Shown here piece by piece: positions 1-56,280 of a stretch of 64,000 nucleotides of DNA; position 1 is the first letter of the stretch, and each line of letters begins with the position of its first letter. This DNA comes from Psammoneis japonica. Taxonomy: Eukaryota. Where the stretch lies: positions 310,001 to 374,000 of the forward strand of contig QPGO01000037.1 in the NCBI GenBank assembly GCA_008632985.1, in the 5' to 3' direction. A program made the position numbers and the translations under genes. Under the pieces are notes generated by a model. The model ran no database searches and was not told the DNA's origin. It was given only the letters and a program-made list of their open reading frames with translations.

Positions 1-2400
1 AAATGATGGAAGTGTTTGGCTTTGTTTTGCTCTTGTTCCAGTTCAATGATGTCTGCCACTCCTGCAAACTGAGCTTTTGTTTCTCTGTGTTCATGTGGTT
101 TGATGTTGAAGAATGCAGCACTCTTCTTTGCCCCCACCAAATGTGGCTCTTGCCTGTTCCTCCAATCTTTCTCCTTCCTGTCCCATCTCTTGTCTTCCTG
201 GGATTTGTTGCTGTCTTTTTCAGACTCTTTGTCTTCTTCACAATGTCTGCAACATTCTTCCTTGACTTCTTGGCACTGTTGGTGGTGGGACTGGATCTTT
301 TGTCAGCCGGTGTCTGGCTTGCTTCTTCACATTCATCACATGAGTCAGGTTTGTCTTTGCAGTCTTCATCTTCTGACTTGGTTTTGCAGCTGGCATTGTT
401 GGGCTCAGTTTTGTTTTTGTCTTTGTTTTTGCTGTCATTTTTGACTTTTGTTGCTTTTGTTGTTGACCACCCCTGCAGTCCAGACAGCATCACCCAGATT
501 GTCTTGACATTTGCCCATGAATTTGAGCTCTTTGATGCCTTGTGATGTGGCCATCTTCTCAATGGCTCTCATGTGTTCATGTCAGTCAAGGGCACACCAG
601 CGCACTTGTGGGGATTCAAAAGCTTGCCCGAGTGCAGGTTCATGACTCAGTGGACACCCTTGGGCAAATCAAAATGTGGTTGCAGGTAGATGCTTTCAAT
701 GCCATGTGCATCCATGGTGTTCATTGGGTTGTTTTCAACATGAGATGGCACAAAGTCCCCAAAACAGAGCTCAAAGTGTTTGTTGCAGGCAAGGTTCCTT
801 CATTGCATGTCAGTGAAAAAACTTTGGACATGACAGTTGTGTTCTTGAACACAGCATGCTTGCACATCAGTTTGGGTGTCATCTTGTGTGGTGGGTTGCA
901 CACAATGGCTTCAGTTTGTTCCTTGCTGGTCTGCATGCTCCCCTCAACTTTGGGAACATGGTCACTTGTGTTTGTGGACACCAGCTCTAGATTTGTGCCA
1001 TCTGCATCTTCTGTCAGCATGGCCTTGATCTCAGGATCACACTCAACAAAGTTGATCTTGAAAAGAGCTGTGTTGCGCTGTTGGAGAATCATTGTCCAGT
1101 GCATCATAAAAATGTCAGCACACTTCTTGGACTTCAGTCTCACTCTCTTGATTGGCACTTGATGGTCTTAACTGTTGTGCACAGCAGCTCAGTGCTGCAT
1201 GCTTTCACAGTGTCAATGCAGAGGATCACACCTTCTCTCTGCATCTTGCAGGTCTCAGGTGCTGGCATGGCTGTGATGTTGTTCCTCTCATGGGATGATG
1301 TGCACATTTGGTCTTGTCTTTTAGCATGTCTGTTGGTGGACCCCAAATGGCTGCCATCCTGTCCACATCTTAAAGTGCAATGGACCTTGTTTGAATGCAA
1401 AAACAGCTTGAAATCTATCACATTTGGTGCTCCAGCTATGAAGCACAGCCTGAGTGCTTGCTCAGCATTCAATGCCTCCCTCTTGGTGTGGCCTGTGGAA
1501 CAAGCTTCACTGTCAAAACACCACAGCTCCAGATGCACTCCTGTGCTCTTTGTTGCTCTCCTTCTGCTGCTTCTTCTTCTTTGACAGCATGCTCGCCGGC
1601 AACTCACTCTCTTGAAGATCTTTTGCATGGTCATAAAACTTCTGGCTTGGCATGGGGGTGTGCATCCTGGTGTCATTCACTTTGAACACCCCAACTTGCT
1701 TGCCAGTTTTCTTGTCTGATGGTTGAAACTCATCCACCACTCGGTTGTCACATGTCATGCAGAACTTGCTCTTCATGTCCTTTAAACTGAAGATGTTTGC
1801 CTTGCCATTGCATTCTGGATGCAAGCTTCACATCCCCCCATCCAGACATGGCACAGTTTTTGTCTGAAGCACCTGCTCCTGCACTTGTGGACAGAACAAT
1901 CTTGGTCTTTGCCAGTCACACATTGTGCACCACTCTCAGGCTTGCCACCATGCCAAGGGCAGAGCCATTGTCAAGGATGATTTCATCTGCCTTGATGCCC
2001 ATGTTGGCTTGGCTCAGTCTCATCTCTGGTCTCTTGATGCAGTTTTGCTCCTGCTCTGGCTGCAATGGGTTGGTTGGTTGGATCTGGTGGTGTGTTGACA
2101 CTCATGTTCTCACCATCCACCAACAAGTGGTCTTCATCTTGTGTGTCTGTGCATTTTTGTTCTTGTGTGTTTGCGTGCATGACTCTGTCCCCTGGTGCCC
2201 AGCTTCTTTCCTGTGGTCTTGTGAACCAGCTGTCAAATGCCATGTCATTTCAATGCTTGCAGTCTGGGGACTTGTGATTTGGTTCACCACAACAGCAACA
2301 CACTGTGGTGTTTCTCTGGTTGCCCTTCTGGGAATGGCTCTGGTTCTTTGGATTGCTGATCACCATTGACCAACTCCACAGCATGCTGAATCACATGAGT
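1..2400 (-). mobile_element. Degenerate Ty1/Copia (CoDi-like) pol relic: protease, GAG-pre-integrase and integrase
   Basis: Minus-strand fragments EIILDNGS (protease), ANIFSL, and NTSDHVPKVEGSMQTSKE (integrase EHVP..ER motif) in Copia order. Strong TA and CG depletion. Ends not defined. Confidence 0.65.
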
Positions 2401-4360
2401 GGCCAAGATGGGAGAAGGGCTCCAACCAAAGAGAAGTCAGCCCCAATGACAGAGATGTGAGACAAGATCAAGCCAATCAACCAGCCAAGGTGGAAAGCAG
2501 ACTCTGGCACACTGGCATTCCAAGCATGGCACACCACTTGTGGAACATTTCTCCACAATCCATGACTCCCATCACAGCCCCAGGAGGCAGATGTAAAAAA
2601 AGAGCATTTGGCACAGGCATGAAAAACTTCAGAGTGAAAAGGGAGGGATTGACTCTGTTTTCAGTGTCACTCTGCACACAACCTGAATGTCATTGTCACC
2701 TTTGGAGATGACAAGAAAGGGGATGAATGTCCACACACCATGGTGTGGTCATGCACGTCAGTGGACACTGGAGCAAAACTTGGCTGACAGATGGCATTTG
2801 AGAAGTGACCCCTGCACACCCATGAAGGGGCCATTCTGACAAAACTTCTTCAGATTTTTTCTTGCTTCCAAGGCAAACAGTGACCAGTGCACCAAGGCAA
2901 GAACCCCAACTTGACATGCAGCCATGTTCCACATGCAGGATGAACCAGATGTTGTGCAGACCCCAGTCTGTCAAATTTGCCAAGAGGGCCCAGAGCTGTT
3001 GAATGTGCAACATCTGGTTCCTGTCCACTGGTGCACATGCAAGAAGAGCCTTCAGCTGGCAGGTCATGAGATGAGGCAGGAGAAGGAAGCTTGCACCCCA
3101 CTGGGGCTGCCCCCCCCCCTGCAGTGTCTCATTTTCTGTTGGATGCCAGCATGCTCTTGTGAGACAACGTGGAAGCTCCAATCAAAGAATGCAGCAATGA
3201 TGCTGCATCATGAATGTTGCAACTGAGTTGGACATGGGGCAAAGCCAAGCCCAAATTTCAGCAGGGCCATTGAAGGTCACCCCGTGGGCTGAGACCCTGC
3301 ACCCAACCAAGGCTTCTTGACTCTCAAGCACAACTGGCTTCCACCTTTCACTTGATCTTCTGCAGATTGTCGGCAGGTTCAGAATCCCTTGCTTCTGCAG
3401 CACATCCACAAGGCCCTCAGCAAAGCTGCCCTGAACTTCTTGCAAGTGATCCAAGCAAGCAAGGATGTCTGCATCCAAGAGTGGAGGGTTGGCTTCAATG
3501 GCAGATGCATGCAACGCGAGCTGATCATTTCATTGGAGAGTGCTGAGGCGCTCCATGTCCATTCACAGGTTTTGGATTGGCTGCTCAATGGAAATCCTGG
3601 AGGGACCAAAGACACTGTTGCAAGAGAGAGCATCTTCTTCCACATCCAAGCTGTGGCTTCAACCTCATGGACACCTGCTCGGGCCCCAAAGGATTGTCAA
3701 AACCCAGATTCCCGCCCGATGTGGAGGGCAGAGTTGCAGGAAAGGACTCAACTTGGAATGCCAGCCACAAGTCTGTGATGAACTTCCACTGTCCAATGGC
3801 AAGCCAAGCTGGGTCTGCAATGCCACAGATGGCAACAGCAACGATGGGAGCAATGCAGCCCCGTTTGTTGTTCGCAGACTTTGTGGAGTTGCCCGTGTGT
3901 CTTCGCATGCCCACGTGGTTCAAAGGTGCAACTTTTTGTGAGTTGATGTCAGAGTGGAGATCAAGAGGAGTCAGCAAGTGTTTTAAAACACAAGAATTTC
4001 ATCACCTGCAAAAAAGATGAATCCAATGCGTGGTTGATGACTAGATGTTGGGGTCAATGCGAGCGCTGCAGCAGCAGTCGTGGGTTCTTGGGTTCCATCC
4101 GAATCCGGAAACAGTCATTCCTGAAGAACGTGCCCTTCTTCATTTCCTCAACCCAACATGTTGCAATTCAAAGTGCTTGACAACATTGAGGGAAACGAAC
4201 AATTCAATGTCGGAAGACATCATGACCAACAGAATCACGAGTGTCGACGGCGACTCAGTGCCAGTTGGACCCGGAGGTGCAAAGTGCAGTGCCGGCAGGC
4301 ATTCATGCCACAAGTGCGGGTGCGGCAGGAACCCAGTGCGACAACTCTCGTCTGACAGTT
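2400..4360. mobile_element. Unclassified hypermutated repeat relic
   Basis: Same TA-poor, TG/CA-rich composition as the identified TE relics, ending sharply near 4360. No family motif recognised. Confidence 0.4.
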
Positions 4361-4801: not shown

Positions 4802-5571
4802 ATGAGGGATTGTGTTTTCAGCCTTCTTGGGGCGTGGATGTTTGTCTTCCTGTCATCTGGTGTGACAGATGGGTTTTCTGTTTCTCCCAGTAGAATATCT
4901 TCGTCGTGTTCCACATCAAAACTGCAGGGCAGCACCGGGAATAATGAGGCGCCTGCATCGCCTGTCCCGTTCATCAAGACAATGGTAGCCACGGTAGCCC
5001 TCGGCACAACTCTAACATTTTTATCTGTTCCTGTTCAAGCATTTGAGGAATCGGATTTTGCTAGTGACACCGTGATGGAGGCAGTCAAATCTCTCGACAG
5101 TGCAAACGGTGACGCCGACAAAACTTTTGCAGCCTTTGAAGGCATCGCATCCATAATTACAGAGGGTCGGGGAGTTGGTGGGCAAATCAATTATGAGGGT
5201 GTAAGTCTCGAGCGTGGATACGTCGCTGATGAGGATACCACAGTTTATAATCCCGGTTTGTCCTTACTTACGGAATCCGAGAAGGAGCGCCTCGTCAAGG
5301 CGGCACAGGATGCTCGATCGGTGCCTTGTCAAAGTCCACATGGACAGACAATAATCAGGTGGCATATGAATTCCTGAAAGAAAAGCTTGACCCCCTTCAC
5401 ATGGCGGAACTTCGGGGGTACTTGGGCTTTGTGCCCGTTCTTGGTGCCGTCTTGTACTTGGCGTCGCTTGCCGTGCAACAGTTTGCTCGTGATTTGTTCC
5501 CGGCCGCCTACATTGCCTCGGCAGTTGTAATCTTTCTTCCTATAGCAGTGCTAGTGTTGCTTGGACAATAA
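4802..5571 (+). CDS. Hypothetical plastid/thylakoid-targeted membrane protein, one frameshift near 5325
   Basis: Signal peptide ending TDG-FSV (ASAFAP-like), second hydrophobic leader ending VQA, two C-terminal TM helices. ORFs 4781-5377 and 5326-5571 overlap in different frames. Confidence 0.6.
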
Positions 5572-6160
5572 AGAAAGAAACAGTGATTTAAATTAAACAA
5601 TGCTCCTGCTAGAGAATACAGTACAGGTATTTGTATTTTCAATCTCTTTGTCCTTTCTTAGCAACCCCGAGACTCACAATATCATGCAGATTCTCTCGTG
5701 AGCAAGGAATTAAAACACGTTCAACCCCAGAATGTTGATCTACGGTCTTTTCCACAATATCATGGTCAGTAAGTTCCTCCAAAAACTGACGAAGAATGGC
5801 ATCGCTTGGCGTGACCATGCGTTGGGTGTTCCCGGCCGCCTACATTGCCTCGGCAGCTGTAATCTTTCTTCCTATAGCAGTACTAGTGTTGCTTGGACAA
5901 TAAAGAAAGAAACAGTGATTTAAATGAAACAATGCTCCTGCTAGAGAATACAGTACAGGTATTTGTATTTTCAATCTCTTTGTCCTTTCTTAGCAACCCC
6001 GAGGCTCACAATATCATGCAGATTCTCTCGTGAGCAAGGAATTAAAACACGTTCAACCCCAGAATGTTGATCTACGGTCTTTTCCACAATATCATGGTCA
6101 GTAAGTTCCTCCAAAAACTGACGAAGAATGGCATCGCTTGGCGTGACCATGCGTTGGGTG
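5495..6160. repeat. 332-bp tandem duplication covering the 3' ends of two convergent genes
   Basis: 5495-5826 is repeated at 5827-6158 with 4 mismatches and TG microhomology at the junction. Confidence 0.92.
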
Positions 6161-11176: not shown

Positions 11177-12600
11177 ATGACGGAAGGCATTAGTTCTCGT
11201 TTTATGACTGTGTTCAATCGCCATGTTGGACGAATTGTCATGATCCTTACATCAACGGCTATATTCCAATTGCTGCGTCTGCAGATTGCGACAACATCAG
11301 AGACCGTCATGTACATGAGGACGACGGAAACGCAGACAAAGCAACATATCTTTACAAATAATGAGGAAAAACGTTTCTGTACGCGAGATGAGATTAGAGA
11401 AGGTGCATGGAAAAAGGTTTTGCTGAAAGCACCACCCTATGTTCCGACCGATAAGCGAAGCATCTGCTACAGAGCCGACGTCTTTGAGAACCCACATTCA
11501 CGTCTTGGGATTGGCTTCCGACCAACAGTGAAAAAGATGCAGGTGGCTGTCGATTCAGTCCATGGGACAGTGACGCGTTCTGTAGAGTTGCCAACGGCAT
11601 TAGAACGAGTAGTGTGCCGACATTGGCAATAGTTGGGGACTCACTGTCATTTGAACAATACAGCTCGTTGGTACAGCTGTTGGGCTTGCCTTCACAAGAA
11701 GATGATCAGGTGACGGCAAGAACACAGAATATTATCCAAGCGGCTTGTAATTGGACAATGGTATACAGACAGAGTGATTCCCTTGAGATTCTGCCGTCGG
11801 TTGTGGAAGCAAACGATCCAAATGTGATTGTCATAAGCCGTGGTGCGAATTATGTCAATGATGAACAATTTGTTTCTGAGCTTGAGAGTACTATTCAATT
11901 TCTTCAAAGCTGGCAGAAGGGCTGTAGTGCGCAAGGCAAAACATGTTGGCTCTTTGTACGAACTTCAGTTCCGGGACACCCAAAATGTGGTGACTACAAA
12001 GAGCCGAGTAGTAGTAAACAAGCGATGGAAGCTTTGGTTGCAAACCAGAGCAACTACGCAGAAGAAAAACAGAGAATCTTTTACCAGTGGAACATGAAGC
12101 ATCAGAATGAACTGGTACTTGATCTTTTTTCCAAGTCGGGGCTACAATACCAGGTCATTGACGCGTACGAACTCAATATCTTGAGGCCAGATCTCCATCG
12201 GCTTCCAGATTGTCTACGAAACTGTTATCCCGGAAAGATAGACGTATACAATCAATTGCTTCTCCACTTTTTGCAACAGAATTTGATTGAGACACAATCA
12301 TACAGCGCTGGACAAGCGCAAGTGCCCACACACGACAGCAGTTCTACACCTAGTTTGAAAGAAACCACAAATAGTGAGCCTCAAGTCATGAACTGTGGCT
12401 GTCCTTCAATCTGCAACGACACTGCGCTTGGACAACGGAGAAAGAAATACCCTTTTTCTTGTAAGGAACGCATCCTATACATGATGAGCAGGTATCAAAT
12501 GACCGAGGCCGCAGCTTGCGCACACGCGAGTAATCCAGAATATGGCGCATGTGGTCCAGAATGCGATCCAAAGCTTTGTGGAGCGAACCCTCCTTCATAG
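11177..12600 (+). CDS. TBL/PC-esterase (GDS...DxxH) O-acyltransferase-like protein, copy 1, frameshift near 11489 and DxxH changed to DxxR
   Basis: N-terminal anchor, IVGDSL, RTSVPGHP, DCLRNCYPG, Cys-rich C-terminus. Restoring 1 bp near 11489 aligns it with copy 2. Confidence 0.72.
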
Positions 12601-13130
12601 AATTTTAGAGCAAGTCCTCTGTCTCCATATCGACGTCATTTTTTGCCTACATGTCGATGTCCCCGTACTGTTATGTGTTTTTGTGTGGAGAACTTGCCTA
12701 ATGAACTACGTGAAATTTGATCGACGGCTTGATCGTCCAATGGTAGGTGGACTACTCCATGCAACACAAACTATGTTAGATGAAGTTTTCTTCTCCCTCT
12801 GGCTTCATGCTACCGTACAGTGTATTGTGTATTGTTGCGCCGCGAGGGAAAAAAGAAAACACGAAATCCATCAACGAATCGGTCATTTTTGTCGGGTCAT
12901 TTGAAGGACGTTTTTTGGTTGAGGTGCTGAGGTCTGCCGTTACCGCGTTTATTTAGCGTTCACCATAAACCGTAACCCAAGAGACCAGCCAAACAAAGCC
13001 AAGCGTGGGCAAGAGCAACATATAACAGTTGCGTTGCTTCCCCCCCCAAGACACTGTAAATGAGTTGCTGTAATTTTACCGCTATTCATGCGATCATTCG
13101 CAATGTTGGACGTATTTTCCTGATCCTGAT

Positions 13131-16100
13131 TGCCAAGTGGCGCCAAGTAATAGTATAAAGTAGCGTTGTAAAGTTGTCTGTTGCTAATATTGTGAGAAGA
13201 AATGAAAGAGATTCGGCTACTCCGAAATCTCGTAGAATTAATACTAAGAAACCGCGTAGAAATATAAAGAAACAATCTTTCGAGAGGCATCGAGATGTAT
13301 CGAGAAAGGAGAAGAGGTTTCTAGAAAGTGTCATCGTTGACATCCTTTTGACACTTTTGACACCAGGCTGACACCCACGAATGAACACACGAATGAATAT
13401 AGATGACCGTGATACTCGGCACTCGCTTCCCCAATTGAGACGTTAGAAGACAGGGTGAAGACGGTGGATGTTGATACGTTCAGTGACGTGAGGCGAGCGC
13501 TGGATGGCAACGGTTCCATTGGCATGGACACGTACGATGCGGAAAGGACCATCTTTGGTGTTGAGTTTGCGTTGGATGTCTTTGGTCATGACGAAGACTT
13601 GATCGCCGATGTTGCAGTCGCAAGCAAGACGTTTTGCGTTTTCGCGGAGATTGTTGCGTAAGACATCGCGCTTGCGACGGGTGTTAATCATTTTCCAGTT
13701 CGCAAGATAAGCAGCAGAAATGACCATGTCTCGACCGAAGACAATTTGTCCGGGAGACAACACAAGGGCAGTGTGGCAGGTGCTGCGCAAGGCCCATGCA
13801 ACGGATTGCAAAATTCCATGAATTGTGTCTTCATCATGATCGCGAGAAGGGAGATCCATCGCACGGAGAGAATCGGCCATCACTTGATGAGTGTGTTCAA
13901 CGAACGCGTTGGCTTGAGGATTCTTGATTGTTGTGGGTTTCGGTTTAACACCACAACTGCAGAGGAGATCTGCAAACTCGGAAGTGAATTCGGAACCGTT
14001 GTCATAAATGACAATTTCTGGTCGCGGACAGCGACAAAACCACTCGCGATCGACGACAAGTGAAATGTCTTCGGACGTTTTGAACTTGCAGTTCGCGAGT
14101 TCGACCCAACGGGTTGCGACATCAATGGTTGAAACGGCTCTGATTTTGCGATCGACACCATTTTTGTCGGCACACGTCCAGGGACCAAAAAGATCGACTT
14201 GAGTTGCCTGCCAAGGTTTATAAGTAGCATCTGGAAGAGGCAATTCGCCACAGTTTGCCATGGCACGCTTGGATTTGGAACACGTGCGGCACTTGCGGAC
14301 AAAAGTGCGGACTTTCGTCTGCATGTCGCGAATGTAAAAATGTGAAGCCAAAGTTTGGCAGGTGCGATTAGCACCAGGGTGGCAGAGAGTTTCATGGCAC
14401 CACCGTAGAACTGCAGGAAAAAGCGTTGGAGGGAGGACAATCTTGTTCTTGTAAAGGACAATCTGTTTTCCGTTGAATGGTTCGGCTGAGCAGGATTCGG
14501 ACTTGTCGAGTCGTTGCTGAAGAGCAGAATCTTTTTTCTGATGGTCGGCGACAATGTCAAAAGTAACGGGGAATGTCGAAGGATCGATTTCCAACGAAGT
14601 CATTTCCTCGTAATCACTTTGATCGACTTGGACAACAGGACAGCGACTCAAAAAATCAGCCACGACATTCTCATGGCCTGGTGGGTGCTCGAAAGAGCAA
14701 TCGCACTCCTCGAGAAGCAAATGCCAGCGTTTGACGCGTTCTGACTTGAATTTGTCAAATGCAAGATTTTTGTGATCGGCAAACAGGTGGCATCGATGAC
14801 CAAAAAGGATGCTTTTGAAATTTTCGGTCGTTTCCACGAGCGACAGCAGCTCTTTTTCCATTGTCGTGTAGTTTCGTTGCGCTTGAGATAATTTTCGGCT
14901 GTAGAATGCAATTGGCCATTCGCCATCGTCAAAATCTTGAGCAATCACTGCACCAAGTTGACAATCACTCGCATCCGGATAGATCTTGAAAGGTTGAGAG
15001 AAGTCGGGGAATCGGAGGAGGATTTCGCGCGCCATGATTTTTTTCATCTGATTGAAAGCTTCCGTGTGGACGTCAGTCCACTTGAATTTGACTTTGTCTG
15101 ATGACAGCGCAGTTAAGGGCGCAAGAGTGTGGCTGCGTCGGCACCACAATTTCTTGTAACAATTCACGAACCCGATGAAACCACGTAATTGTCGACGGTT
15201 TTGAGGGCGAGCGAAGCGAAGCAAGGGTAGGATTTTCTTTTTCTGAGGCTGAGTGCCTTTTGCAGTCATGGCATGGCCTGAGTGGTCGACGGTCTTGGCG
15301 GCGAAGTAGGATTCTTCGACATGTGCATGAAGATTGTTCGCGAGGAGCCGTTGCAAGACGAGTTCGAGTCGTTGACAGTGATGGTTGAAGTTGTTCTTGG
15401 TAAAGAGGATGATGTTGTCGATGTAGACTATGACATCTTCCATGTCATGAAAAACATCTGTCATGCAAGCTTGAAAAATGTCGCTTGCCGGTTTGATTCC
15501 TTGCGGCAGGCAGTTGCAGCAATGCTTGCCCCACGGCAGGATGATGCCGCAGAGTTTTTTTGACTCGTCGTCAAGCACGAAGTGACAGTAGCCTCGGTTG
15601 AGGTCCAAACATGTCGCATGGGTAAAGCCGTTCATTTTCCATGCGACGTCGTCGATGACAGGCAGTGGATGTGGATGCCGTTCGAGACACTCGTTGAGTT
15701 TCCGTAAATCGGATAAGAAACGGATGCCACCGCTTTTCTTCGATCGGAAAAGACAGGATGCGCCCCAAGGAGAGTGAAGTTTGCGCGTGACAACATCGAT
15801 TTTTTCCAATTCATCCACTTCTTTGCGAGCCATGGGATGTGACGCTTGCGGAATGGTGCAAGCTTTCGCACAGCATGGACGCGATCCTGGTTTCAGGGTC
15901 AAATGGACGGGTTTACCGGGTGCAGCTCCAAGTGCACCATCGAACAATTGCGGGCATCATCCGAAGAGTTCGATGAGTTGGTGCTGTTGATCGTTGTCAA
16001 GGTGTTTGCAGCGTAGAACCATGTCGCGATAATTGTGCTTGTCGCACGCATTGCTCGTCATACCTCGAACCTGACGGTTGACGGCATTCTGGAAGAACTT

Positions 16101-18030
16101 GGGTAATTCAGCATCGCCGGGATGAATTGCATTAACTTCGACTTGGTCGAAAGAGCCCTTGGATTGCATGGACAGGGTGACATCGTCCCACGTGATTGTT
16201 TGATGTCGAAAATCAAAAACGATTCCCATTTCTGTGGCGGTTTTTCTTCCGATGATAATGTCGTGTTTTCCTGCGGCTTTGTCTTCCATGTGAGCATCGA
16301 CGGAAACCTTCTTGGACGATGCGAAGTCTGGGAACTTCAATGTCAGCGTCGCAATCTCGTGTAGATTAACGGCACTGTAACGGCCTTTAACGGGAACGTT
16401 GCATTTACGGATTTTGTGAGGAATCCCGCGAAGGGCTGAGCGCTTCACAAAATTGCGATTTGCGCCGGCATCGAGTAAAGCAACACGGAACTTGTGCATT
16501 CCAGAATGAGCATCAATCATCTGGACACGCGCTTCCGTGGTAAGATTGTCTTCTATTTCGGATTCGATGGAATCGTCTAGAAGAGACGTGACGTCTTCAA
16601 AAATGTCGTTGATGTCATCTGACGCGACGCTGTCGACATCGTTAGAAGCGGAGCGACTAGCTTTGGAGTCCACATTGTTGTTTTCGACGTTCCGTGTGCG
16701 GCTCCGTGTGGGATGGCGGTGTGTCGGCTCGTTTCGAGAGTTATTTTGTTGATTCGGCGCGTTCCGATTTGTGCGGTTCCGCTCATAATTTTCACGTTCA
16801 CGACGGATGACATTGCACTCTTGACCGTTCGGATGTACAACGCCATGGATTGGACATGTTTGTTCACGATTGTTTTGGTTCCTGTTCCTGGTGTCGCGAT
16901 TTTGGTCGTCATTCTGGCCGCGACGCGCATTTCGACCGTTGTTGCATCGATTCCGATTGTCATTGCATCTGTTGTTGTCGGTAGACCCTTTGTCACCACG
17001 TTGTTCCATGCGTCGGAGAGTCTCGTAGCATTGAGCTTGGTCGTTCAAGTTTAAGTTGCGAAGACGGGCTTTAGTCTGAGTTTCGGCCCATGATCTTGGT
17101 CCACATTTTCGAAGGATTACGGACAATTCCGCTTCCGTGAATGACGGAACTCTTTCGGCGTCATCTTCGGTTGGCGCAGGCATGATGTCAATCAACTTAT
17201 TAAAGCGACGTACATCATTAACAAATGACTTGACAGTTTGGTTCCTGGGTTTCTTAAGGCTTTGAAGCCATTCCTCAGTGTCAAGGGCAATTTCTCCATC
17301 CATGCATTGGAGTAGAAATTCTTCACGACAAGTGTCGAATGTAACTTGGTCGTGGTTTTCGTATTCGTTTACGACGATTTCCCAGTCGTCTTTTGGTGTT
17401 CCGGTCATAAGTCTGGTCACGAGCCGGAAACGTGGCTGTCCTTCAGCCGCACCGAGATCGTTGATAAGTTCATCGAAGTTTGACCAGAAGGTAAGAACAT
17501 CTTCCGGTTCAGTTGAAGCTAACTTACGTACCTTGATCGTAGTTTTAAGCCCATCTAGATCGTCAGGATCAATGGGGCTTTCAAAAGACACGAATTGGTC
17601 TTTGCGTCGCTCTTCCTCAGAGCGGTCAGGACGCTTAAGTTCGAATGGGCAGTTTTCTGCTGACATGTCTGGTCAGGACAATATGATCGGTAGATATATC
17701 TCAAGAGAGATGAATAAGTGTTTGGGAGTAAATTTACTATGCCAAGTGGCGCCAAGTAATAGCATAAAGTAGCGTTGTAAAGTTGTCTGTTGCTAACATT
17801 GTGAGAAGAAATGAAAGAGATTCGGCTACTCCGAAATCTCGTAGAATTAATACTAAGAAACCGCGTAGAAATATAAAGAAACAATCTTTCGAGAGGCATC
17901 GAGATGTATCGAGAAAGGAGAAGAGGTTTCTAGAAAGTGTCATCGTTGACATCCTTTTGACACTTTTGACACCAGGCTGACACCCACGAATGAATATACG
18001 AATGAATATAGATGACCGTGATACTCGGCA
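13131..18030 (-). mobile_element. Full-length Ty3/Gypsy LTR retrotransposon (element A)
   Basis: 291-bp LTRs at 13131-13421 and 17740-18030 (TG...CA), 5-bp TSD CTGAT, PPT next to 13421, gag-PR-RT-RH-IN order. Confidence 0.97.
13443..17666 (-). pseudogene. Element A single-frame gag-pol with one in-frame TGA at 15957-15959 and many Tyr->Cys/His changes
   Basis: LLDAGA protease, YIDN (YIDD), DAS RNase H, H..LCH..C..C and D,D,E integrase, GPF motif. ORFs 15957-17666 and 13443-15947 are in the same frame. Confidence 0.9.
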
Positions 18031-19641
18031 CTGATATCAGCGGCTACCTTCCAAACGCTGATTCCGCAAATAGCGACTTCGTCTAAATCAATCCTGTACG
18101 TGAGATTGACGACAAAAGGAAATACGAGTATCTCTGGAAAAGAGGAAAAGCACTTGTGTACTCGAGACGAGATTAGAGATGGTGCATGGAAAAAGGTTGT
18201 GCGGAATGCGCCGCCGTATGTCCCGACGGACAAGCGAAGCATTTGCTATGGTGACGACGTTTTTGAGCAACCGACATGGACTACGTGGGATTGGTCGCCA
18301 TTCAACGTTTCACAAAGTGAACAAGGCTCATCTGAAAGTGGCTGCCTATTCAACGCATGGGACAATGATACGTTCTGTAAGGTCGCAAGTGGCATCCAAA
18401 CGAGCAGTAGGCCGACATTGGCCATTGTTGGGGACTCGCTCTCATTTGAACAATACAGCTCGTTATCACTGCTGTTAGGATTGCCTTCAAAAGAGGACGA
18501 TCATCACGCAGCAAGAAGAGCGAATCGGAATATTGTTAAAACGGCATGTAATTGGACAATATTGTACAGACGGAGTGACAGGCTTGAGTTGTTGCCTTCG
18601 GTTGTGGAAGCAAACGATCCAAATGTGATTGTCATTAACCGTGGTGCTCATTATGTCAACGACGGACGACTAGAGTCTGAGCTTAAGCGATCAATTCAAT
18701 TTCTGCAAAGCTGGCAGAAGGACTGCACTGCTCAATGCAAAACATGTTGGCTCTTTGTGCGAACTACGGTTCCGGGGCATCCGAACTGTGGTGGTTACAC
18801 CGAACCGAGCAATAGTATAGAAGCGATGGAAGCCTTGGTTGGAAACCTGAGTAACTATGCGGGAAGCGAGAAAACCTATCATTGGTGGGACATGAAGCAT
18901 CAGAATGAGCTGGTACTCGATCTCTTTTCAAAGTCGGGGCTACAATACCAGGTCATTGACGCGTACGAACTCAATATCTTGAGGCCAGATCACCATCGGC
19001 CCCCGGATTGTCTACATAGTTGTTATCCTGGAAAGATGGATGTATACAATCAATTGCTACTCCACTTTTTGCGACAGAATTTGATTGAGACAAGATCACC
19101 CTCAACCTGCTTTCGACAAGAGCAAGCGCTCACAGGCAACTCAAGCCTTAAACTGTGAATACGCATGTGGTTCCGAATGTGATCCCCAAACTTTGCGGAA
19201 TGACCCCACTTTCATAGTTATTTGGAGTAATTACTATCAATATCGTCTTTGACTAGAATGGCACGCATATTCAACGAGCATATCTATAGAGAGTGTTCCG
19301 CTCATGACGAAGAAAGAATATTCGTAGCTGTCCAAAACAAAACTGTTGTCGATGTTTCCTTGTGCGTTCTAGTGCGGAGAGTTCGCTAAACGATCTTCAT
19401 GAAAGTTGATTTAATACTCCATCGTCCTATAGTTCGAATACTTCATACATCATCAAGGAAGCCATCTTTTGCCGCCTACATTGCCCGTCAACGGGGTGTC
19501 CCTGGCTTGCACGACGAATATCATGAGCATTGATGGCTACTAAAGCTTTCAAGGAGTCTCAGAATATGCAAAGAATGTTGATTCATATTCCTTAGATTAT
19601 TCAGCTGCTATTCCATTCCCGCTCTATTTTGCCTTCTTCGA

Positions 19642-23179: not shown

Positions 23180-24757
23180 GGAGACGACTCCTCTCCATAA
23201 TGCCAAAATGAAGCAGTTCCTAGTCATGGCCAGAGAGAAGCTTTAGCTCTACAGCAGCAGAGAGGGGCCAAAGGCTAAAGCTGTACATTGTTTGTTGGTT
23301 GCCATGCCACACCACAGGGAAACTACCTCTCTGCTGTAATTTCTGCTTGGTGCTCATGTGGTGTGCCTCCGCATCAGGGTTGAGAGTGGGGGCAGGCAAG
23401 CCAGGAGGAGCGGGAAGTGGAGGAGAAAGTTTCGGGATGGTGGTGTCAATTGCAAGGTGTCAATGTCCCATTGGGGAAGCAGCAGAGGCAGCTGGGTTGA
23501 GCTGGACAATGAGGTCAGTGGGGCACTTGAGGGGTGAGTGAGGTGCAAGGTTTGTGGGTTCATGATGGACTGCGGAGGAGTCGGCACAGATGCCAGAGAG
23601 AGAGAGGAGCAACAAGTTTTTGGAATGTGGTGAAGAGGCCATCACGTGTGGCATTGGACAGAGCAGCTTTGTGTCTGAGAGGCTGGCAGCAGAAAGCATG
23701 ATCTCTGCAGGGGTTGGCAGCACCATTGCAAGAAGGGCAGGAGACAGAGTCAGGGTGATCAGCCAAGATGGGGAAATGCAGCTTGCATTGCAACACAAGG
23801 TGGAATTGATCAGGGGACAGCAGGCATTGGTTGGGGGCATGGAGCGAGCAAGGGAGTGAAAAGGGAGGCTTGCAAGTGCGGAGAGAAGGGAGGGGAGATG
23901 TGTGCAGGGCCTTGCTGTTGGAGCATTTGCAACTGGCATTGAAAGTGGGCATGGCACAGATCATGAGAGAGGTTGCAGGTGGGTTGTGGGTTTTGACAAG
24001 GGCAGTGATGGAGGGTGGAGCAGGGTCGAGCGTTGGGGTGGTGGCAGTGCCACAGTGTTTGAGAAAGACTTGACAGAGGCACAGGAGCCAATGGGAAGTG
24101 GCCCATGTGCAGAGTGAGCAGGCACAGAAGGGAGGCAGTTTGGGGAGTTGTCCTTGCCAGCAGCAGGTCCGTGCATGGTGCATGGCATGCCCCAGACCGG
24201 GAGCGGTGGGCAAGTTCGCAGATGAGGAAGGGTGTGATGGAGGTGGAGGTGGAGATGGAGTGGCAGCCCAAGCTGCTGGTGTGGATGTGGGGAGATGAGC
24301 AAGGAGCATTGCATGGGTTGGCAAGGGCTGTGATTGTGCCATGAGATGCTGCAAGAAGGCATCAGTGCAGCAGCGGCATTGGACATTTTCTTGTTGGAAA
24401 GGCCAAGCCCAGGAAGCAAGGCGGGGTGGGCCAGTGGGTTGTCTGGGTGCGTGGAAGAAGTTGAAGCACACTTCTGAGACCAGGAGGTGCAGGAGTGAGG
24501 AGGTGGCACAGGCATGGCATGGGGAGCTTTTGGTTTGGGTGTCTCAGAGGCAGGAGGAGAGCATGTCGAGGTTGGTGCGGAGCGCAGGTGCTTTTTGGTC
24601 GAGGCAGGCTCGGGGGCAAAGTCAGGGCTGCCGATGCACTGGCCAAGGAAGCGGAGGTTTGTGGCAATTTCAGGGTGGAGAGTGGGGTCGTTGGCAGGGT
24701 TGAGGAAGGGATTGCTTTGGAGGAGAGCGGCGCAGAGGCGTGGGCACTCGCTGGGGG
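23180..24757 (-). mobile_element. 3' relic of a CRE-like (restriction-like endonuclease) non-LTR retrotransposon
   Basis: C..C....NPCRDHAFCC......SNATRD followed by EPTNLAP..PLKCPTD (RPAD-like). TA/CG depleted and interrupted by element B. Confidence 0.6.
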
Positions 24758-27700
24758 TGCACTGTGCTCGAAGAACGAGTGTAAACGAAAGTAGAATAGT
24801 GCACGAAAAGTGGAAATTATAAGATCAATTTTTGCTCTGTGATTTTTGGTTTCTCCGAACGAGTTCTCAATGGCCTAAAGCTTCTGTACTGCTTCTACAG
24901 ACAAAAGGCCTTTCGGAGAATATATTCGTGACAACAGATTGTCCGGATACGATTGCTATTGACACGTAAGATGTCAACATCGTCAATCGATCGTATTTGC
25001 AATTCTCGACATCCGATCAACTCTGTGTGATCGTTCTGTCCTTTGTACGCATCCACGACTGTGGTACGATTGACATATAAATAATATATAATCATAAATA
25101 TGTATATAACAGTCGCATACTGCATTCGCCTCCCTAATTGCACATTAGAGTCATTTGTAAGTGGATTATTCGACGGACATCGACAGTGTCAATAATGTCT
25201 CCACTTTCACTGTATTGTGCCATTAGCAATGACTGTTGTTGTTTTGTATAGGCAATATAGGGCCGTTCCAATTTCCGAATGTCTTTTGAGAGTGACATTG
25301 TTTGTTTCTCACTTAATATGTATATATATAGTATTACGTCGAGTATTCTCATTGACGTTCTTGTTGATATGAACACAAGGACTAATTGTCCTGGAGTAAG
25401 TGTTTTTCCTGATATCGATTGTACATAGCATCGTGCCCAGTACTTAATGTACGCTCTTAATTATGGCGTTCACTTACTTACTTGTGGATTTCATGTAGTT
25501 TGGCGGGCTTACTTTATATGCCATATTGCTCTGCTGCACTACCACGTTTCATAAGTAATAATAAACGATGGTCAAAGATATTATGACCATTTCGTCTTGA
25601 TAATCAATCCTGTGATGGTTATGAATTCCATTGTGGATTTTTTTTTTTTTGTACTTCAACCATCTATCAGTTGGATTTTAATCGTTATTTGGACGTTTTT
25701 TTCTGACATGCCGGTGTCATTTTGTCATTCCGAAGGCACTGGTTTCGTGCACTGAGTGGATGAATGTCCATTTTTCTTTTCTTTTTCTAGATCTTTGGCA
25801 CATCTCGTGTGTCGACATGATGTGTGTTTTAATGTCTTGCCTCGTACATTGTACAGTGCAACCGTGCGGGTGTTGTGAGATTGTCTTTTGCCAGTGTGAA
25901 GTGGACACGTGTGATGCACACCAATCTGTCACTGTTTTTTCCCAAATCGTCCTTTAAAATGGCGATTTTATCCTTGTGACATGAGCATTTTTCGATCTCG
26001 CTCGCCTCCACGAAAAGTGTTCGTATGACATGTCGCGTCCGACAATTTGGAGGGGAATGTCTTTATCCCGTTTTAACGGCAGGACATTGTCGCAGGATTC
26101 AATTTTCTGTGGCAAGTCGGCTGATCGCGTCTGTCGCGACGATGTTCGCCTTGCCCTCGTTGTGTTCTAATTTGGGGCTGAAGTTGTCAACGTGTGACTT
26201 TGTCCGTTGTGTCTTGTGATCCGTGTGTGCACAAATCTGTTGGCCAAACAGCACATTTCGGAATTTTATGAGTGTTTTCACCATGGACAGAAGTTCTTTT
26301 TTCCGTTGCAACGCACAACATTGAAATCCGTGCATGATGACAATGTGGTTTTTGATTTGATGCGCTCCACATTTTCGGAGACTTTTCGTTCCGTACTTGT
26401 GCTTTTGCCGTTTGACCTTCACTGAGGTGAATTTGGCTAGTGTTGTGCAGGAGATCGTTGAGACTGCATGTCTCGACAATGGTGACGCATGACAACGAGA
26501 TGTCGCAGTGTTCTTTGCGTTTTTCTCGTGTTGCGATTGCTTGAATCGCCTCCATTTTCTTTGCAATCGATTGCATGTCGTTGCGCATGGAAGTCTTGAC
26601 AGTTTATTTCAAGTTAAATGGTGAAGGACTTTTGTTGTCAACCTTCTAAGCGACTGTTCTGGTCATTTGAATGCCGCATTAAGCTGTCACTTGTGCAGGT
26701 GACATTTTGAAGTTACTTTTGTCAGGCACAAACGATCACACACAGTCGTTTTGACAACTTCAAACCTGTTGTGAGTTCACTCAAGTGTTGCACAAAAACA
26801 TCTGGGGCTCCACAGATTCTCATTGGAAGTCCGTGGCACTCATTTTCTCCCCACGGCATGATTTTCGTGTGAGCACGACGTGTGCTTTTTTTATTTGACA
26901 TGGTGGCATTCCATGTTTGAATCAAATGGATTGCATGTGTGAAACGTTCTTGCTTCAATGGCATTTCCTGAACATTGGGCAAAGGACACACCACCTGTGT
27001 GAACCTTGTGCCAAGCTTCTGAGTGTCGGATGCGGTCGAACTCGACCTGTTTTCTTTGGACAATGAGTCTCAGAGCGACTTGTTCAGAGCAATTTCATTC
27101 TCAAGACTTCAATCTTTCACAATGGGTCAAACTCCTTTTGATTGGACGCCTCCAAAGACTGTGATGGGAGAAGGTTCTCACGCGTCATGGAATCGCGTCA
27201 GATTTTCCACAATGAGATCCACTGATGCTTCCCATGCATTCGTCTGAGGAACTTTTCAAAACGATTTCAACCTCTTAAGAAGAAGATTGAGTTGGTTGTG
27301 TTCATTTGGGTTAGATGCATCGCCGCAGTTGTCACTTGATTAAGATCGATGGCGTGACAATGTGAGTCGAGGACCATTGGCTCCGTTGTTGACTCCATTC
27401 ACGGCGTCACATTTTTCAATGTGATCGGTTTTCAGCTTGAAAACATCGGCATCGAAGAGTGCATGAACATTCTTCATAAGGCAATTGCTTCTTCCCATTA
27501 GATTTCTGCATTTGCGCAGTCCAACATGACTTGCAGGACTGGACATTAAGTCGCGTCCCATGATCATGTCATTTGAACCTGAAGAAAATTTGGTGTTTTC
27601 AACATGTGCTGTTTGAATGTCACCATGCTTTAAATTTCGCATGGTGAGAACTGAATTCGGTGTTTGCTGTCAGTCGTAAAGAGCTCACCCTTGGTTTCCC

Positions 27701-28854
27701 AAGTTTTTGGTGGCGGATTCTTGTGTTCTCAACTTTCGCACGAATTTGCGCAAAATTGTGGTTGACGATGTTCCGTTGTCGACAGGAACACGCAGATGCT
27801 TTTTTTTTTTTTTTTTCCTTTCCCAAGGAAGCATTCACACAAATGATGACTCCTGGACCAGTGTGAATTATTTCTGCCTTTTTTTTCTAGGCTTCCTGAC
27901 ATCCAGCAAAGCGTGTAATTCGTGAACAGACCAAAATCATTCTTCGGATTCAGTCTGGATCATCCGATCAAATTGGTGTTTTTCTTCACTGAGGGCATCA
28001 GAATCTGATTCTTTGCCCTTGTGCTCTTTTTCTTTGTTCAAGGAACTTGCTTTGAGCATTTTTTTGAACCGCCTGATCAATCATGACGTTCATCTCTTTT
28101 TTTTGCGAGCGGCATTTTCGTTGTCGCGACGCGACCGCGTGCGATTGCCATTTGAACGGCGCATTTTTGGGTCTCTTTCAGAGTCACCCTTGCACTCTTT
28201 TGCTGGTTCATTTTCGGAATGGCTTTAATCCATGATGCAGGCATTCTTTTTTCAAAGATTGGACCTTTCACTCACTTTGGATTGTGGTGGTGCCATGTGG
28301 GAGACCATTTTTGGAACCAAAATTGGAACCTTTTTGATTGTGGAATCAACTGCGCTGTCAGAGCCCGAATTGATGTGTTTTTTTGTCACAGACGTCCTTG
28401 CCGACCTCTAGACGACTCAAACCTCAATCAGCTCGTCAAGGGTATGATGTGCACTATGCTCGAAGAACGAGTGTAAACGAAAGTAGAGTAAAGTTCAAAA
28501 AGTGAAAATTGTGAGAATTGTTTCTGCGCAATCATTTTGGGTTTCTCCGAACGGGTTCTCAACAGCCTAAACCTTTTGCACTGCTCCTACAGACAAAAGG
28601 CCTTTCGGAGAATATGATCGTGACAACAGATTGTCCGGATACGATTGACATTGACACGTAAGATGTCAACATCATCGTACGATCGCATTTGCGATTCTCG
28701 ACATCCGATCACTTCTGTGTGATTGATCTGTACTTCGTACGAACCCACGATTGACGTACGATTGAAATATGCTTTTATTTAATGTATAGATATACATATA
28801 TAATACGTACATGACAACGCATATTGCATTCGCCTCCCTAATTGCACATTAGAG

Positions 28855-31800
28855 TCAGTCGTTAAACGGCATTATTCGACGAATATTGACAGTGTCAATA
28901 ACGTTACCGCGTTTGATCTGTACTGTGCCATTAGTATGTACCGTTGTTATTACATACGGTCCAACATAGGGCTGTTCTAATTTTTGCGAGTCTTTCTCGA
29001 GTAGTATCTTTTCTCCTACTCTGTACGTGTAAGGAGTACGTCGAGCATTCTCTCGAGCGTTATTTTTATTTATGATTTCTTGTTTTCGCTGCTGGATTAA
29101 TTTCCAGTCTGCGACATGTTGGACGTTAAATATCATGTCTCTATTGAAGATTAGTTGTCCTGGTGTAGCTTGCGTAGTGGTATGATATGTAGAACGTACC
29201 GCAAATGCTACTGCTGATAGTATTCCAGCGAAAGGATCCTCAGTATCTAGAGGTGTATGTTGCAAATCAAATGTACGGAGCATGTTCCCCAGTACTTGAT
29301 GTACGCGTTCAATAATTGCGTTTGCTTGTGGATTTCGTGTAGTTATAGGCTTGACTTTAATGCCATAATCATCTTGCACCATTTCTTTAAATTGGTGTCC
29401 GATGAACTCACTTCCACGGTCATATGTAATTAACGATGGCCAAGGATATCTACTTAACCATGTTCGTTCTAGTAGTCCAGCTACAGTTATGGACTCCTTA
29501 TTTGGGATTTCCACAACTTCAAACCATCCGGTTGCTGGATCGATCATAGTTAAACATTTCAGGACTAGGGGTTTTTTCTTTCCCTTACGACGTATTTTGT
29601 ATGGCCCAATAAGATCCACACATAGTCGTTCCCATGGTACGGATTCTGCGCACTTAGGAGGTAAATGTCCATATTTCTTGTGTTTCTTTTTGAATTTTTG
29701 GCACGTCTCACATCTCGACACGTATTTTCGTATGTCTTCACGTAAGGTGGACCACCATAGGTGTTGTGAGATTGTTTCTTCTGTTCGATTTATGCCAGGG
29801 TGAAGAAGGTACGTATGATACCAATCTATCACTGCCTTTTGTAACGTCCTCGGGACGACAATTTTATCCTTATGACATATGAGCAACCGGTCTCGCTCGC
29901 CTCCACGAAAAGTCTTCGTATAAAACGTCTTATTTGACAATTGGGAGAGAATGTCTTTATCCCGTTTTTGTTCATAATCAAGAACTTTGTAATTTAACGG
30001 AAAGACATTGTCGTAGGATTTTGGTAGGACCTTTTCAGCTAGCTCTTCTGTGCTGAGGGTTTCCATAGGTTCTATTTTCTTCATAGTAAGTCGGCTAATC
30101 GCGTCTGCGACAATATTTGCCTTGCCCTCAAGGTATATTATTTCGGGACTGTATTCTTCTATTATTAGACGCCAACGCATGACTCTGTCCGTTGTGAAAT
30201 TTTTGTGTGTGAGATTTTTGTGATCCGTATATATATTTATCTGTTGGCCAAACAGTATATTTCGGAACTCTTTTAACGTCTCCACTATGGACAATAGCTC
30301 TTTTTCCGTTGTAGTATAACGCGTCTGCGCTCCATTCAGCTTGCGGCTGTAGAAGGCAATTGGTCGGTTTTTCTGAGTAATAACCGCCCCCAATTGAGAT
30401 TTACTAGCATCGGTATATATCTCAAAGGGTATATTAAAATTCGAGTATGATAATAGTATATCTTTGGAGATGATGCGCTTCATATTTTCGAAGGCTTTTT
30501 GTTCTGTTTCGGTCCATTGCCACTTTACTTGGGTAGAAGTGAGTTTGGCTAAGGGAGCTAAAACATGAGATCGTCGAGGCCACATGTCTCGATAGTAGTT
30601 GATCATGCTGATAAAGCGTCGCAATTCCTTGCGAGTTTTGGGAGTTGCGATCGCGCGAATCGCTTCCACTTTTTTTGGAATCGGACTGATGCCCTTGCGG
30701 GTGATGTGAAAGCCTAGATAGTCTACTTCGGGTTTAGCGAAAAAGGACTTCTCGGCGTTGACCTTCAATCCGGCTTGTTCTAGGCGTAAGAACACCGTTT
30801 CAAGCTTCTTGAGGTGGTCTTGAAAATCACCTTTTGCAAGACACAATGTGTCGTCAATGTAAGTTCTGACGAACTCCAGACCTGCCATGAGCTCACTCAT
30901 GTGCTCTTGGAAAATATCTGGAGCTCCACAGATTCCCATCGGGAGTCTACAGTGCTCACATTTGCCCCAAGGCATGACAATCGTGCACAAGCGACGTGCA
31001 TGTGGCGTCAATTCGACATGACAGTGTCCCATGTTTAAATCTAGGGACGTTGCATGCATGAAGCCTTCGAGCTTCTGTAGCATATCCTGAACATTGGGTG
31101 GAGGAAACGGAGTACGAATTAACCTCTTGTTTGGCTCACGAAAGTCGGACAAGAACCGAACTCTACCATTTTTCTTGGGTTGAACAAAGGTTGGAGCCGC
31201 CCATTCAGAACAATTTATTTTTCTCAAGACTTTCAACTTGCATGGTCTTTCAACCTCCTTACGAGTGGTCGCCTCCAAGGCTTGTGGCACGGGAAATGGT
31301 TTGGCATGATGCGGACTCACGCCCGATTTCAACTTTAAATCCACCGGTTTCCCGGTCCATTTGCCCAGAGAACCATCGAAAAGGTTTTCAAATCTTTTTA
31401 AGAGGAAGTTCAGCTGCTTCTGCTCTTCAGGAGTTAGATGAGCAGCTGCTGCGGTCACATTATTGAGGTTTGCAGCGTGATGGTCTGAGTCAAGGATCCG
31501 ATTGACCCTGTCATTAAGACCAATCACTGCATGAGATTCCTCAATGTGATCGGCAATCAACTTAAAAACATCGGCATCGAAGAGTGCATCAACATTCTTC
31601 ACAGGAGCAGTTGCATCTTCCCATTTAATTTCTTCATTCAAGAAGTCCAACATTGTCCCAAGACTTGACATTAAGTCGCGTCCCATGATCATGTCATGAC
31701 GACTCGAAGAAGAAGGGGAGTTGTCAACATGTGCCGTTGTTTCAATCATCTCATGTTTGTCAAATTCGGGCAAGGAGAATTGGATCTTACATCGACTGTC

Positions 31801-45972: not shown

Positions 45973-46329
45973 AGGAGTTGGTGACTTCTCTTCAACAGCT
46001 GTTAACCTTCATCCATGAAGCCTTGACCGCTCTCAACCAGCGGTGAACCACAGACACCGCACACCGCCATTTTTGTGATGTGTGATGGTGCGTGTGATGG
46101 TCAAAGCACGGACCGACCGCACGCGCGCTCTGCCTGCGCTCATTTGCTCATGCTGCTATTCGCACGCTAGACGATGCAGTGTGATAGACTCTACACTCTA
46201 CAGCACTCTCTACTCTCTCTCTAGAGAGAGAGTCTCCAGCAGCAGAGAGCCAGCTAGCTGGCTGCTCCCAGAGTGTAGCTGCCAGCTGTGGCTAGCAAGC
46301 TGGCTAGCTGGCAGTTGCTCTGCCAGAGA

Positions 46330-56163: not shown

Positions 56164-56280
56164 TGACAGGATTTGAACAGGATTTAGGTGTGCGCGAAAT
56201 GTCGCGCGCTGCTCAGTTTACCGCGCACAGTTTTGTGTGCTCTTTGGTTCCGCGCGCACGCGCGATGCAGTTTGCTTTCA

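Follow-up and report, generated by a model that had tools for sequence, protein, structure and literature searches.

In Neurospora and other ascomycetes, repeat-induced point mutation (RIP) mostly converts CpA to TpA in duplicated DNA and creates stop codons. APOBEC3 edits the complementary DNA (cDNA) of retroelements, giving G-to-A changes, and ADAR edits double-stranded RNA with no restriction to UpA. For APOBEC3G acting on the cDNA of the human immunodeficiency virus (HIV) a mutation gradient has reportedly been seen. In Bigelowiella natans, a TpA-only hypermutation from A:T to G:C has been described in integrated DNA of giant viruses and virophages (Mettrop et al., bioRxiv 10.64898/2026.01.13.699255). 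The preprint describes an episodic process that arises in already integrated DNA as cultures grow, about 1000-fold above the base rate; some mutation-accumulation lines reach around 6e-7 per site per generation. Its proposed chemistry is the deamination of adenine in DNA, and RIP is described there as C-to-T on repeated sequences. In diatoms, CpG methylation is concentrated on transposons (PMC9998398, PMC5124317). Here a 64,000-nucleotide (nt) stretch of Psammoneis japonica (contig QPGO01000037.1, positions 310,001-374,000; the whole stretch is called the window) is compared with these systems. It contains a complete Ty3/gypsy retrotransposon with long terminal repeats (LTRs), element A, that has lost most of its TA dinucleotides in one tract and kept nearly all of its CpG.

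Full-text literature searches for a TA-directed process in diatoms returned nothing relevant, and in print such a process was found only for B. natans. As the text of that preprint contains neither 'CpG' nor 'diatom', it does not cover the order and rate of TA and CpG loss, the sparing of LTRs or the preference for TA followed by a pyrimidine (TAY). What the locus contributes is the rate contrast obtained from three LTR pairs, an allele with an empty insertion site, a codon-level comparison of TA and CpG loss, and a caveat concerning the history of the element's interior.

Element A is found at 13131-18030 on the minus strand. Its direct LTRs start with TG and end with CA, it is flanked by a 5-bp target-site duplication (CTGAT at 13126-13130, with the identical five bases at 18031-18035), and its pol domains come in the order reverse transcriptase, RNase H and integrase, all as in Ty3/gypsy elements. 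The pol frame (13443-15956, minus strand, 837 amino acids) matches the Pfam families RVT_1 (residues 73-224), RT_RNaseH (293-417), Integrase_H2C2 (509-564) and rve (581-680), and also RT_RNaseH_2. The gag-protease frame (15957-17672, or 15960-17672 without the TGA, minus strand) encodes 571 amino acids with no Pfam match, which align with the N-terminal parts of homologues of 1400-1441 amino acids. The original prediction, made from the letters alone, had noted a single stop codon in A, and there is indeed only one, an in-frame TGA at 15957-15959 (minus strand) between the two frames. All ten homologues examined carry a sense codon (Q, E, N, P or K) at this position, within one frame of 1400-1441 amino acids. 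The two LTRs, each of 291 nt and on the minus strand, had been called near-identical; of 293 aligned bases 4 differ, in each case as TA versus CA, with two of the changes in each LTR: compared with its partner, the 5' LTR (17740-18030) now has CA for TA at 17763 and 17797, and the 3' LTR (13131-13421) at 13386 and 13388.

The insertion is recent and either hemizygous or polymorphic, since public DNA run X1, from the same organism, contains a 1558-nt contig that represents the empty site, fusing position 13125 to 18031 with five shared letters. The flanks in this contig are 99.8% alike to the window, with one substitution, which is not of TA type, and one indel in 1223 nt. The summed depth of run X1 is 236-2774 over the bins of A and 62 over the left flank, figures that do not represent a copy number. 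Of the 31-mers sampled from A, 48% are present in that run, which corresponds to about 2.3% private differences or around 115 over the element. Two further runs, X2 and X3, gave almost no additional information on siblings of A, and no sibling was found in public protein sets, where the best matches are 53-56% identical over the full length and at most 69% in short fragments.

The loss of TA is confined to part of the element. In bins of 400 nt the observed/expected ratio (o/e) of TA is 0.14-0.24 at 13601-16000 and 0.30-0.38 at 16001-17200, against 0.55-0.79 in the LTR bins and the 5'-most 540 nt of the interior. Expressed as a TA index, TA/(TA+CA+TG), the depleted tract at 13400-17200 shows 0.03-0.17 versus 0.29-0.39 in the LTRs and the 5' 540 nt. 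Read along the sense strand, the depletion grows from 5' to 3' and ends at the 3' LTR. CpG is retained throughout this tract; its o/e is 1.02-1.68 along the whole element, in agreement with the abundance of CG noted earlier.

The effect on the protein was assessed at conserved columns of the pol alignment, defined by agreement among 10 or more of the 12 closest public homologues, which are 53-56% identical to A pol. There are 455 such columns and A matches 361 of them. Tyrosine is the conserved residue in 24 columns, where A has kept it in seven and has Cys in 12, His in four and Phe in one. When each of the 12 homologues was scored in the same way against the other 11, it showed at most one Tyr-to-Cys/His change among 24-31 Tyr columns. 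The earlier reading of conserved Tyr as Cys or His in A is thereby borne out (16 of 24, against none or one in the controls), and the three motifs on which it was based, RPCCAKAC, WGKHCC and STCH, align with KPYYARAY, WGRYxYxRL and TTYHT in the relatives. In composition, A pol has 1.55% Tyr and 8.7% Cys plus His, where the medians of 240 homologues are 3.97% and 4.66%. Among the 94 replacements at conserved columns, 23 correspond to one TA-to-TG step and six to one TA-to-CA step on the sense strand, so that both products occur, five are of CpG type, and 60 are other or multi-step changes. Counting single-step replacements, 29 of 74 are of TA type, including 16 of the 17 lost Tyr.

Tyr-to-Cys is characteristic of this process because all Tyr codons have the form TAY on the sense strand. 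A strand bias was considered on account of the Cys:His ratio of 12:4 and rejected (p 0.08), as the TAY preference alone favours Tyr-to-Cys. There is no codon context in which a change from TA to TG or CA turns a sense codon into a stop, a property that CpG-type changes do not share. For this reason the frames of A and of a second element, B, stay open and long frames are found in the old blocks of the window. The proposal that elements are disabled by missense changes with the frame unbroken holds. Conserved arginines encoded by CGN (N, any base) give the corresponding measure for CpG. In A pol 29 of 33 are kept, all of them still as CGN, and four have become His or Cys; compared with the 16 of 24 Tyr lost, the difference is clear (Fisher p 4e-5). 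The CpG-type replacements are Arg to His at 14722, 13894 and 13465, Arg to Cys at 15512 and Val to Ile at 15725.

Contigs of sibling copies allow the polarity of changes in A to be read directly. This comparison covers 37 classified rows out of 619 variant rows, three rows found only in run X2 being excluded, and one of the 16 mutated Tyr codons (14029/30). At a minimum of four sites (13621, 13625, 14789 and 15789) all sibling contigs compared read TA where A reads CA or TG. A and its siblings have opposite products at five or more sites, among them 14029/30, where the conserved Tyr is Cys in A and His in five of five sibling contigs, and at least five sites have TA in A and have lost it in siblings. 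It had been stated that the argument would fall if the Tyr changes were common to the whole family; these sites show that they are not. CpG sites have been lost as well. At least six are private to A (13894, 14616, 16772, 16962, 16967 and 17534), with CG in all of the 2-12 contigs compared and TG or CA in A, and at three or more sites A keeps a CG that is lost in the one contig compared. The change at 13894 is the same event as one of the Arg-to-His replacements above. Five of the private losses are inside the TA tract and one outside it, in proportion to the numbers of CpG.

LTR pairs provide a cleaner estimate of rates, and the window holds three. Apart from that of A, they belong to a second gypsy family present as a nested pair, element B (28450-33626) inside element B' (24758-28449 and 33627-34676). 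The LTRs of B' (the 3' LTR at 24758-25124, minus strand, 367 nt, and the 5' LTR at 34310-34676, minus strand) differ by four bases, which form two sites with TG in one LTR and CA in the other. Those of B (the 3' LTR at 28450-28828, almost unmutated, and the 5' LTR at 33248-33626, partly mutated, both on the minus strand) differ by 15 bases, representing ten sites with TA versus CA or TG, two with CA versus TG, and one with CG versus CA. In B, 11 of the 14 TA-loss events are in the 5' LTR, which adjoins the mutated half of the element, and three in the 3' LTR. The only CpG loss in any LTR pair is also in the 5' LTR of B (partner position 28462).

Taken over the three pairs there are 19 differing sites, 18 of them of TA type (14 with TA versus CA/TG, four with CA versus TG), one of CpG type and none of any other kind. 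The other LTR family has TA at nine of the 14 TA-type sites of the B and B' pairs, is uninformative at five and contradicts the direction at none, and it retains CG at the CpG-type site. This amounts to 22 TA-loss events per 164 site-copies and one CpG loss per 120 (Fisher p 4e-5). No change was seen at 1510 other bases (upper 95% bound below 0.2%), while 13.4% of the TA site-copies have changed. On the scale of -ln(survival), the rate of TA loss exceeds that of CpG loss 17-fold in the LTRs, 8.5-fold in the conserved codons of A and 6-fold when the broader set of 240 homologues is used. Per site, TA loss is thus about 6-17 times faster than CpG loss, and it exceeds the mutation rate of other bases at least about 70-fold. 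That TA loss is the faster of the two had been anticipated, and both the LTRs (22/164 vs 1/120) and the codons (16/24 vs 4/33) agree. The stronger wording, that TA loss precedes CpG loss, holds only in the sense that it outruns it: with six or more private CpG sites and four Arg already lost in A, the two losses overlap in time. In 20 of 22 LTR events the base after the mutated A is T or C, and within the tracts the survival of TA increases in the order TAT, TAC, TAG, the last being at or below TAA.

Within B there is a contrast between parts of the same age. Its frames extend over 28855-33306 on the minus strand (pol 28855-32055, gag 32056-33306). The 5' half (30600-33200) and part of the 5' LTR are depleted of TA, whereas the 3' half and the 3' LTR have normal TA; conserved Tyr are kept at none of six columns in the 5' half and at nine of ten in the 3' half. 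CpG density is alike in both halves, around ten per 200 nt. In B' the depleted tract, again with CG retained, covers 25600-28449 and 33627-34300 (TA index 0.00-0.18; at 26001-28000 TA o/e is 0.16 and CG o/e 0.94), and both LTRs and 25125-25600 are spared. Because the TA-depleted DNA of B' ends abruptly at the clean 3' LTR of B, B' was probably mutated before B was inserted. The interiors of B and B' were tried as a before/after pair and found too diverged for this (438 transversions in 3618 aligned bases, with CpG differences in both directions, 56 and 32).

The per-copy comparison of TA and CpG comprises, within the window, the three LTR pairs and six copies or parts of copies. The latter were scored with a broader criterion, namely columns kept in at least 80% of at least eight aligned public homologues, and the figures for A therefore differ from those given above. 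Ordered by decay, the 3' half of B keeps 9/10 Tyr and 13/13 CGN-Arg, A keeps 5/14 and 16/19, the 5' half of B 0/6 and 4/5, B' 0/4 and 7/9, a relic at 63.5-64k 0/4 and 1/3, and a relic at 53.5-56.2k 0/9 and 0/3, the three Arg codons of the last being now TGA, TGG and CAC. These numbers are small.

The same order is seen over the whole window when it is divided into 128 bins of 500 nt. Thirty-four bins are CpG-poor (CG o/e below 0.5); 30 of these have TA o/e below 0.15 and 33 below 0.45, the sole CpG-poor bin at or above 0.45 being an edge bin at 46001. Conversely, 16 bins with TA o/e below 0.3 keep CG o/e at 0.75 or more (Fisher p 4e-17). CpG loss is thus nested within TA loss. The most decayed DNA forms two blocks that by dinucleotide o/e lack both TA and CG, at 1-3500 and at 46500-56000, the latter with a gypsy pol relic at about 53500-56200 on the plus strand. 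For 1-4000 the o/e is 0.02-0.08 for TA and 0.06-0.13 for CG, and for 46001-56000 it is 0.04-0.19 and 0.26-0.30; CA/TG o/e is 1.7-1.9 in both. The earlier description of these relics was right about their composition and too narrow about the extent of the first block, which runs to around 3500 and not 2400. A block at 56000-60000 is intermediate (TA o/e 0.10-0.16, CG o/e 0.62-0.68). In the old blocks CpG has been lost whichever of the four bases follows it. A search of the window for LTR pairs or long copy pairs by which the old relics could be dated found none, and six of six long frames in the old blocks gave no Pfam family.

The comparison with B. natans is close in several respects. There changes are almost exclusively A-to-G or T-to-C at TpA, giving TpG or CpA, they are confined to foreign or repeat-derived DNA and leave host genes untouched, and TpA depletion with an excess of CpA and TpG develops in the long term; enrichment in reverse-transcriptase and transposase genes is a further feature (bioRxiv 10.64898/2026.01.13.699255). 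Here changes are likewise almost only at TpA in the LTR pairs (18 of 19 sites), and TpA accounts for 29 of 74 single-step replacements in pol. The direction A:T to G:C follows from the Tyr of the 12 homologues, the TA at nine of 14 LTR sites and the four or more sibling sites with TA. Restriction to mobile DNA is seen in host gene bins with TA o/e of 0.5-0.8, in the unchanged flanks of A and in the ordinary spectrum of duplicated host genes. Two such duplications served as controls: a 334-nt tandem duplication next to the ORC2 gene (5495-6160), 98.8% alike, in which one of four differences is of TA type, and the tandem PC-esterase genes flanking A, 77-88% alike, where the differences follow an ordinary spectrum. 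Linked duplication of host genes does not, then, attract the TA process, and duplication alone is not the trigger. The two systems differ in that B. natans is a rhizarian and the present organism a diatom-like stramenopile, in that the targets are viral insertions there and LTR retrotransposons here, and in that the process was measured there in mutation-accumulation lines and is here deduced from sequence.

RIP shares with the process described here the dense tracts of transitions in transposon copies, the inactivation and a dinucleotide footprint. It runs in the opposite direction, however: RIP makes TpA from CpA, whereas here TpA is destroyed and CA and TG accumulate, and RIP creates stops, which the TA process cannot do. 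The decay of CpG through 5-methylcytosine (5mC) resembles what is found in the old blocks, where CpG is replaced by TpG and CpA (CG o/e 0.06-0.30, CA/TG o/e 1.7-1.9, Arg codons now TGA, TGG and CAC), but it cannot explain the loss of TA, lags far behind it and is seen only in TA-depleted DNA. Editing by deaminases would share the possibly dead-on-arrival copies, the context-dependent transitions and the 5'-to-3' gradient of A. On the other hand, APOBEC gives G-to-A where A-to-G is seen here, and ADAR editing would affect the transcribed strand only, with no more context dependence than a weak 5' preference, and leave both LTRs identical, whereas here TG and CA both occur, the changes are confined to TA and the LTR pairs differ. 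The pairs have moreover diverged after LTR synthesis, and the position of the tract varies from element to element.

Direction, specificity, the contrast in rate and the nesting of the two losses are thus matters of observation. The best explanation for the whole, which is regarded as rather probable, is a fast TpA-directed mutation of A and then a slow loss of CpG. A process aimed at TpA would turn TA into TG or CA by A:T-to-G:C transitions, with a preference for TA followed by T or C, and would act on transposon DNA integrated in the genome, in tracts that differ for each element and that tend to spare the LTRs. TA loss would be nearly complete while most CpG remain, and the element would be disabled by missense, mostly Tyr to Cys or His, with its frames staying open. 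A slow CpG loss would follow, only inside DNA that is without its TA. The likeliest cause of this later loss would be deamination of methylated cytosine, an economical assumption because CpG methylation in diatoms sits mainly on transposons, and a role of methylation is accordingly presumed. By analogy with B. natans the chemistry of the first step would be adenine deamination on DNA. That the TA process is independent of 5mC deamination is plausible on kinetic grounds. Action in place is favoured in general, because tract positions differ among elements, the two LTRs of B are unequal and both products occur; for the interior tract of A it is presumed.

Several observations weigh against this account. 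In A, TA has been lost at 16 of 24 Tyr codons in the interior and at 4 of 46 site-copies in the LTRs (p 8e-7), and since interior loss so far exceeds LTR loss, a uniform process acting in place since the insertion does not fit. LTRs date the insertion and not the interior, which may have been mutated before or during transposition. The feature most in need of an explanation is the relative sparing of the LTRs, seen in A, B and B' alike. The LTR counts may also be less one-sided than given above, as for two of the four CA-versus-TG sites there is no outgroup evidence of an ancestral TA, and CG may have been their starting point, in which case 18 TA events stand against five CpG events. CpG loss in A is not zero (at least six private sites and 4/33 Arg), and the data would fit one process with two rate constants as well; a ratio of the two rates that was constant from the start may also be compatible with them. 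The greater age of the relics is judged from their decay and not from divergence, and the sibling comparison reaches the Tyr changes through one codon of 16.

The contrast between interior and LTRs is what gives weight to the possibility that the interior of A was mutated elsewhere, either because A was copied from a hypermutated parent, with proteins supplied by intact siblings and LTRs spared, or because its RNA or cDNA was edited during retrotransposition. The near-identical LTRs would then say nothing on the speed of change in the interior. LTRs are spared in B' as well, so that a mutated parent would retain its promoter and cis signals, and over the 1223 nt of flank no TA-type change separates the A allele from the empty one. 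Moreover, the 5'-to-3' gradient of A, stopping at the 3' LTR, resembles what is said of APOBEC3G on HIV cDNA. A replication-linked gradient should, however, look alike in all elements, and the mutated parts differ: in A they are the 3' four fifths, in B the 5' half and part of the 5' LTR, and in B' all but the 3'-most 480 nt. A retrovirus-like replication gradient was for this reason discarded as a general cause of the profile of A. RNA-level editing cannot yield the unequal LTRs of B (12 TA sites, with 11 of 14 events in one LTR), TG and CA directions are both present in A, the dominant A-to-G change on the sense strand is on the wrong strand for deamination of minus-strand cDNA, and in B. 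natans the signature arises in integrated DNA during culture. An origin of the tract outside its present site is consequently considered unlikely, though it deserves to be kept in mind for A.

That CpG loss hardly occurs outside TA-depleted DNA (33 of 34 CpG-poor bins with TA o/e below 0.45), and that the sole LTR CpG loss is in the mutated LTR of B, would also be expected if one mutator were responsible for both, the TA-directed enzyme deaminating C at CpG around ten times more slowly, with no need for 5mC decay. In the B. natans preprint, reference is made to ADAT2 enzymes that reportedly deaminate C as well as A in DNA. The CpG density of B is, however, equal inside and outside its TA tract, the private CpG losses of A show no excess inside the tract (five in, one out), the old blocks have lost CpG in all four 3' contexts, and the documented CpG methylation of diatom transposons suffices; a single enzyme is therefore thought improbable. 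Least credible by far is that low TA and high Cys/His are a family trait, inherited through composition or selection. One unusual residue of A is indeed shared in this way, its YIDN (for YIDD) being common to 12 of 12 close homologues. The same 12 homologues keep Tyr at the columns concerned, though, the siblings read TA or the opposite product where A reads CA or TG (among the variants listed), the LTRs of A differ solely at TA sites, and about half of the sampled 31-mers of A are absent from a run in which the family is present at high depth.

The locus adds a clock to what is known, in that three LTR pairs and a still polymorphic insertion show TA loss to outrun CpG loss by about an order of magnitude and the background by about two. 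From this follows a sequence of events, open to testing, by which diatoms would retire transposons. It also accounts for dead copies with long open frames that databases list as predicted proteins, and it is a caution that in these genomes LTR identity, the content of Tyr, Cys and His, and dinucleotide statistics behave unusually. A wider proposal is put forward tentatively, as one that may well prove wrong: a TpA (TAY) mutator, probably an adenine deaminase, could be the first-line inactivation of transposons in diatoms, reaching insertions that are still polymorphic, acting by missense with no stops, sparing LTRs and operating before, and independently of, the slow CpG decay that accompanies methylation. 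Together with B. natans this would point to an old genome-defence system across the stramenopile-alveolate-rhizarian (SAR) supergroup, opposite in direction to fungal RIP.

As the process makes no stops, hypermutated copies can sit in databases as predicted proteins. Four of the 240 public homologues (P0226, P0200, P0192 and P0114, which are metagenome or assembly proteins) carry the same footprint, with scant or no Tyr and an excess of Cys plus His; P0226 retains no Tyr at ten reference Tyr positions, eight of which are Cys or His.

Some further features of the elements and their surroundings may be mentioned. The reverse-transcriptase active-site box (15400-15440, around residues 175-185 of A pol) reads YIDN in A and in all 12 closest homologues (P0001-P0012), and YIDD or YLDD in more distant relatives and in B. 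A conserved Asn at the second catalytic Asp is uncommon for a reverse transcriptase; being common to 12 of 12 close homologues, YIDN is ruled out as an inactivating mutation of A. A single TGA is found between gag and pol of B (32056-32058), as in A; TGA, unlike TAA and TAG, is a stop codon beyond the reach of the TA process. B' is flanked by GGGGG and GGGGC, and a clear target duplication for B was sought and not found (TGATG before, GATCC after). Element A is inserted between two tandem PC-esterase genes of the Pmr5/Cas1p type (11488-12600 and 18022-19158). Directly left of B', a block at 23500-24757 has TA o/e below 0.15 and CG o/e below 0.5 and holds a 327-amino-acid frame with no Pfam match. 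In the old blocks (1-3500 and 46500-56000) the residual TA have a 5' T and a 3' A in 54% of cases each, compared with 22% in unmutated transposon DNA; TTAA-like sites seem refractory, and TAT is the most depleted context in all tracts. Finally, around ten head-to-tail copies of a 42-nt unit are found at 62281-62856 in a TA-poor block, within a 732-amino-acid frame (61154-63352, plus strand) that has no Pfam match.

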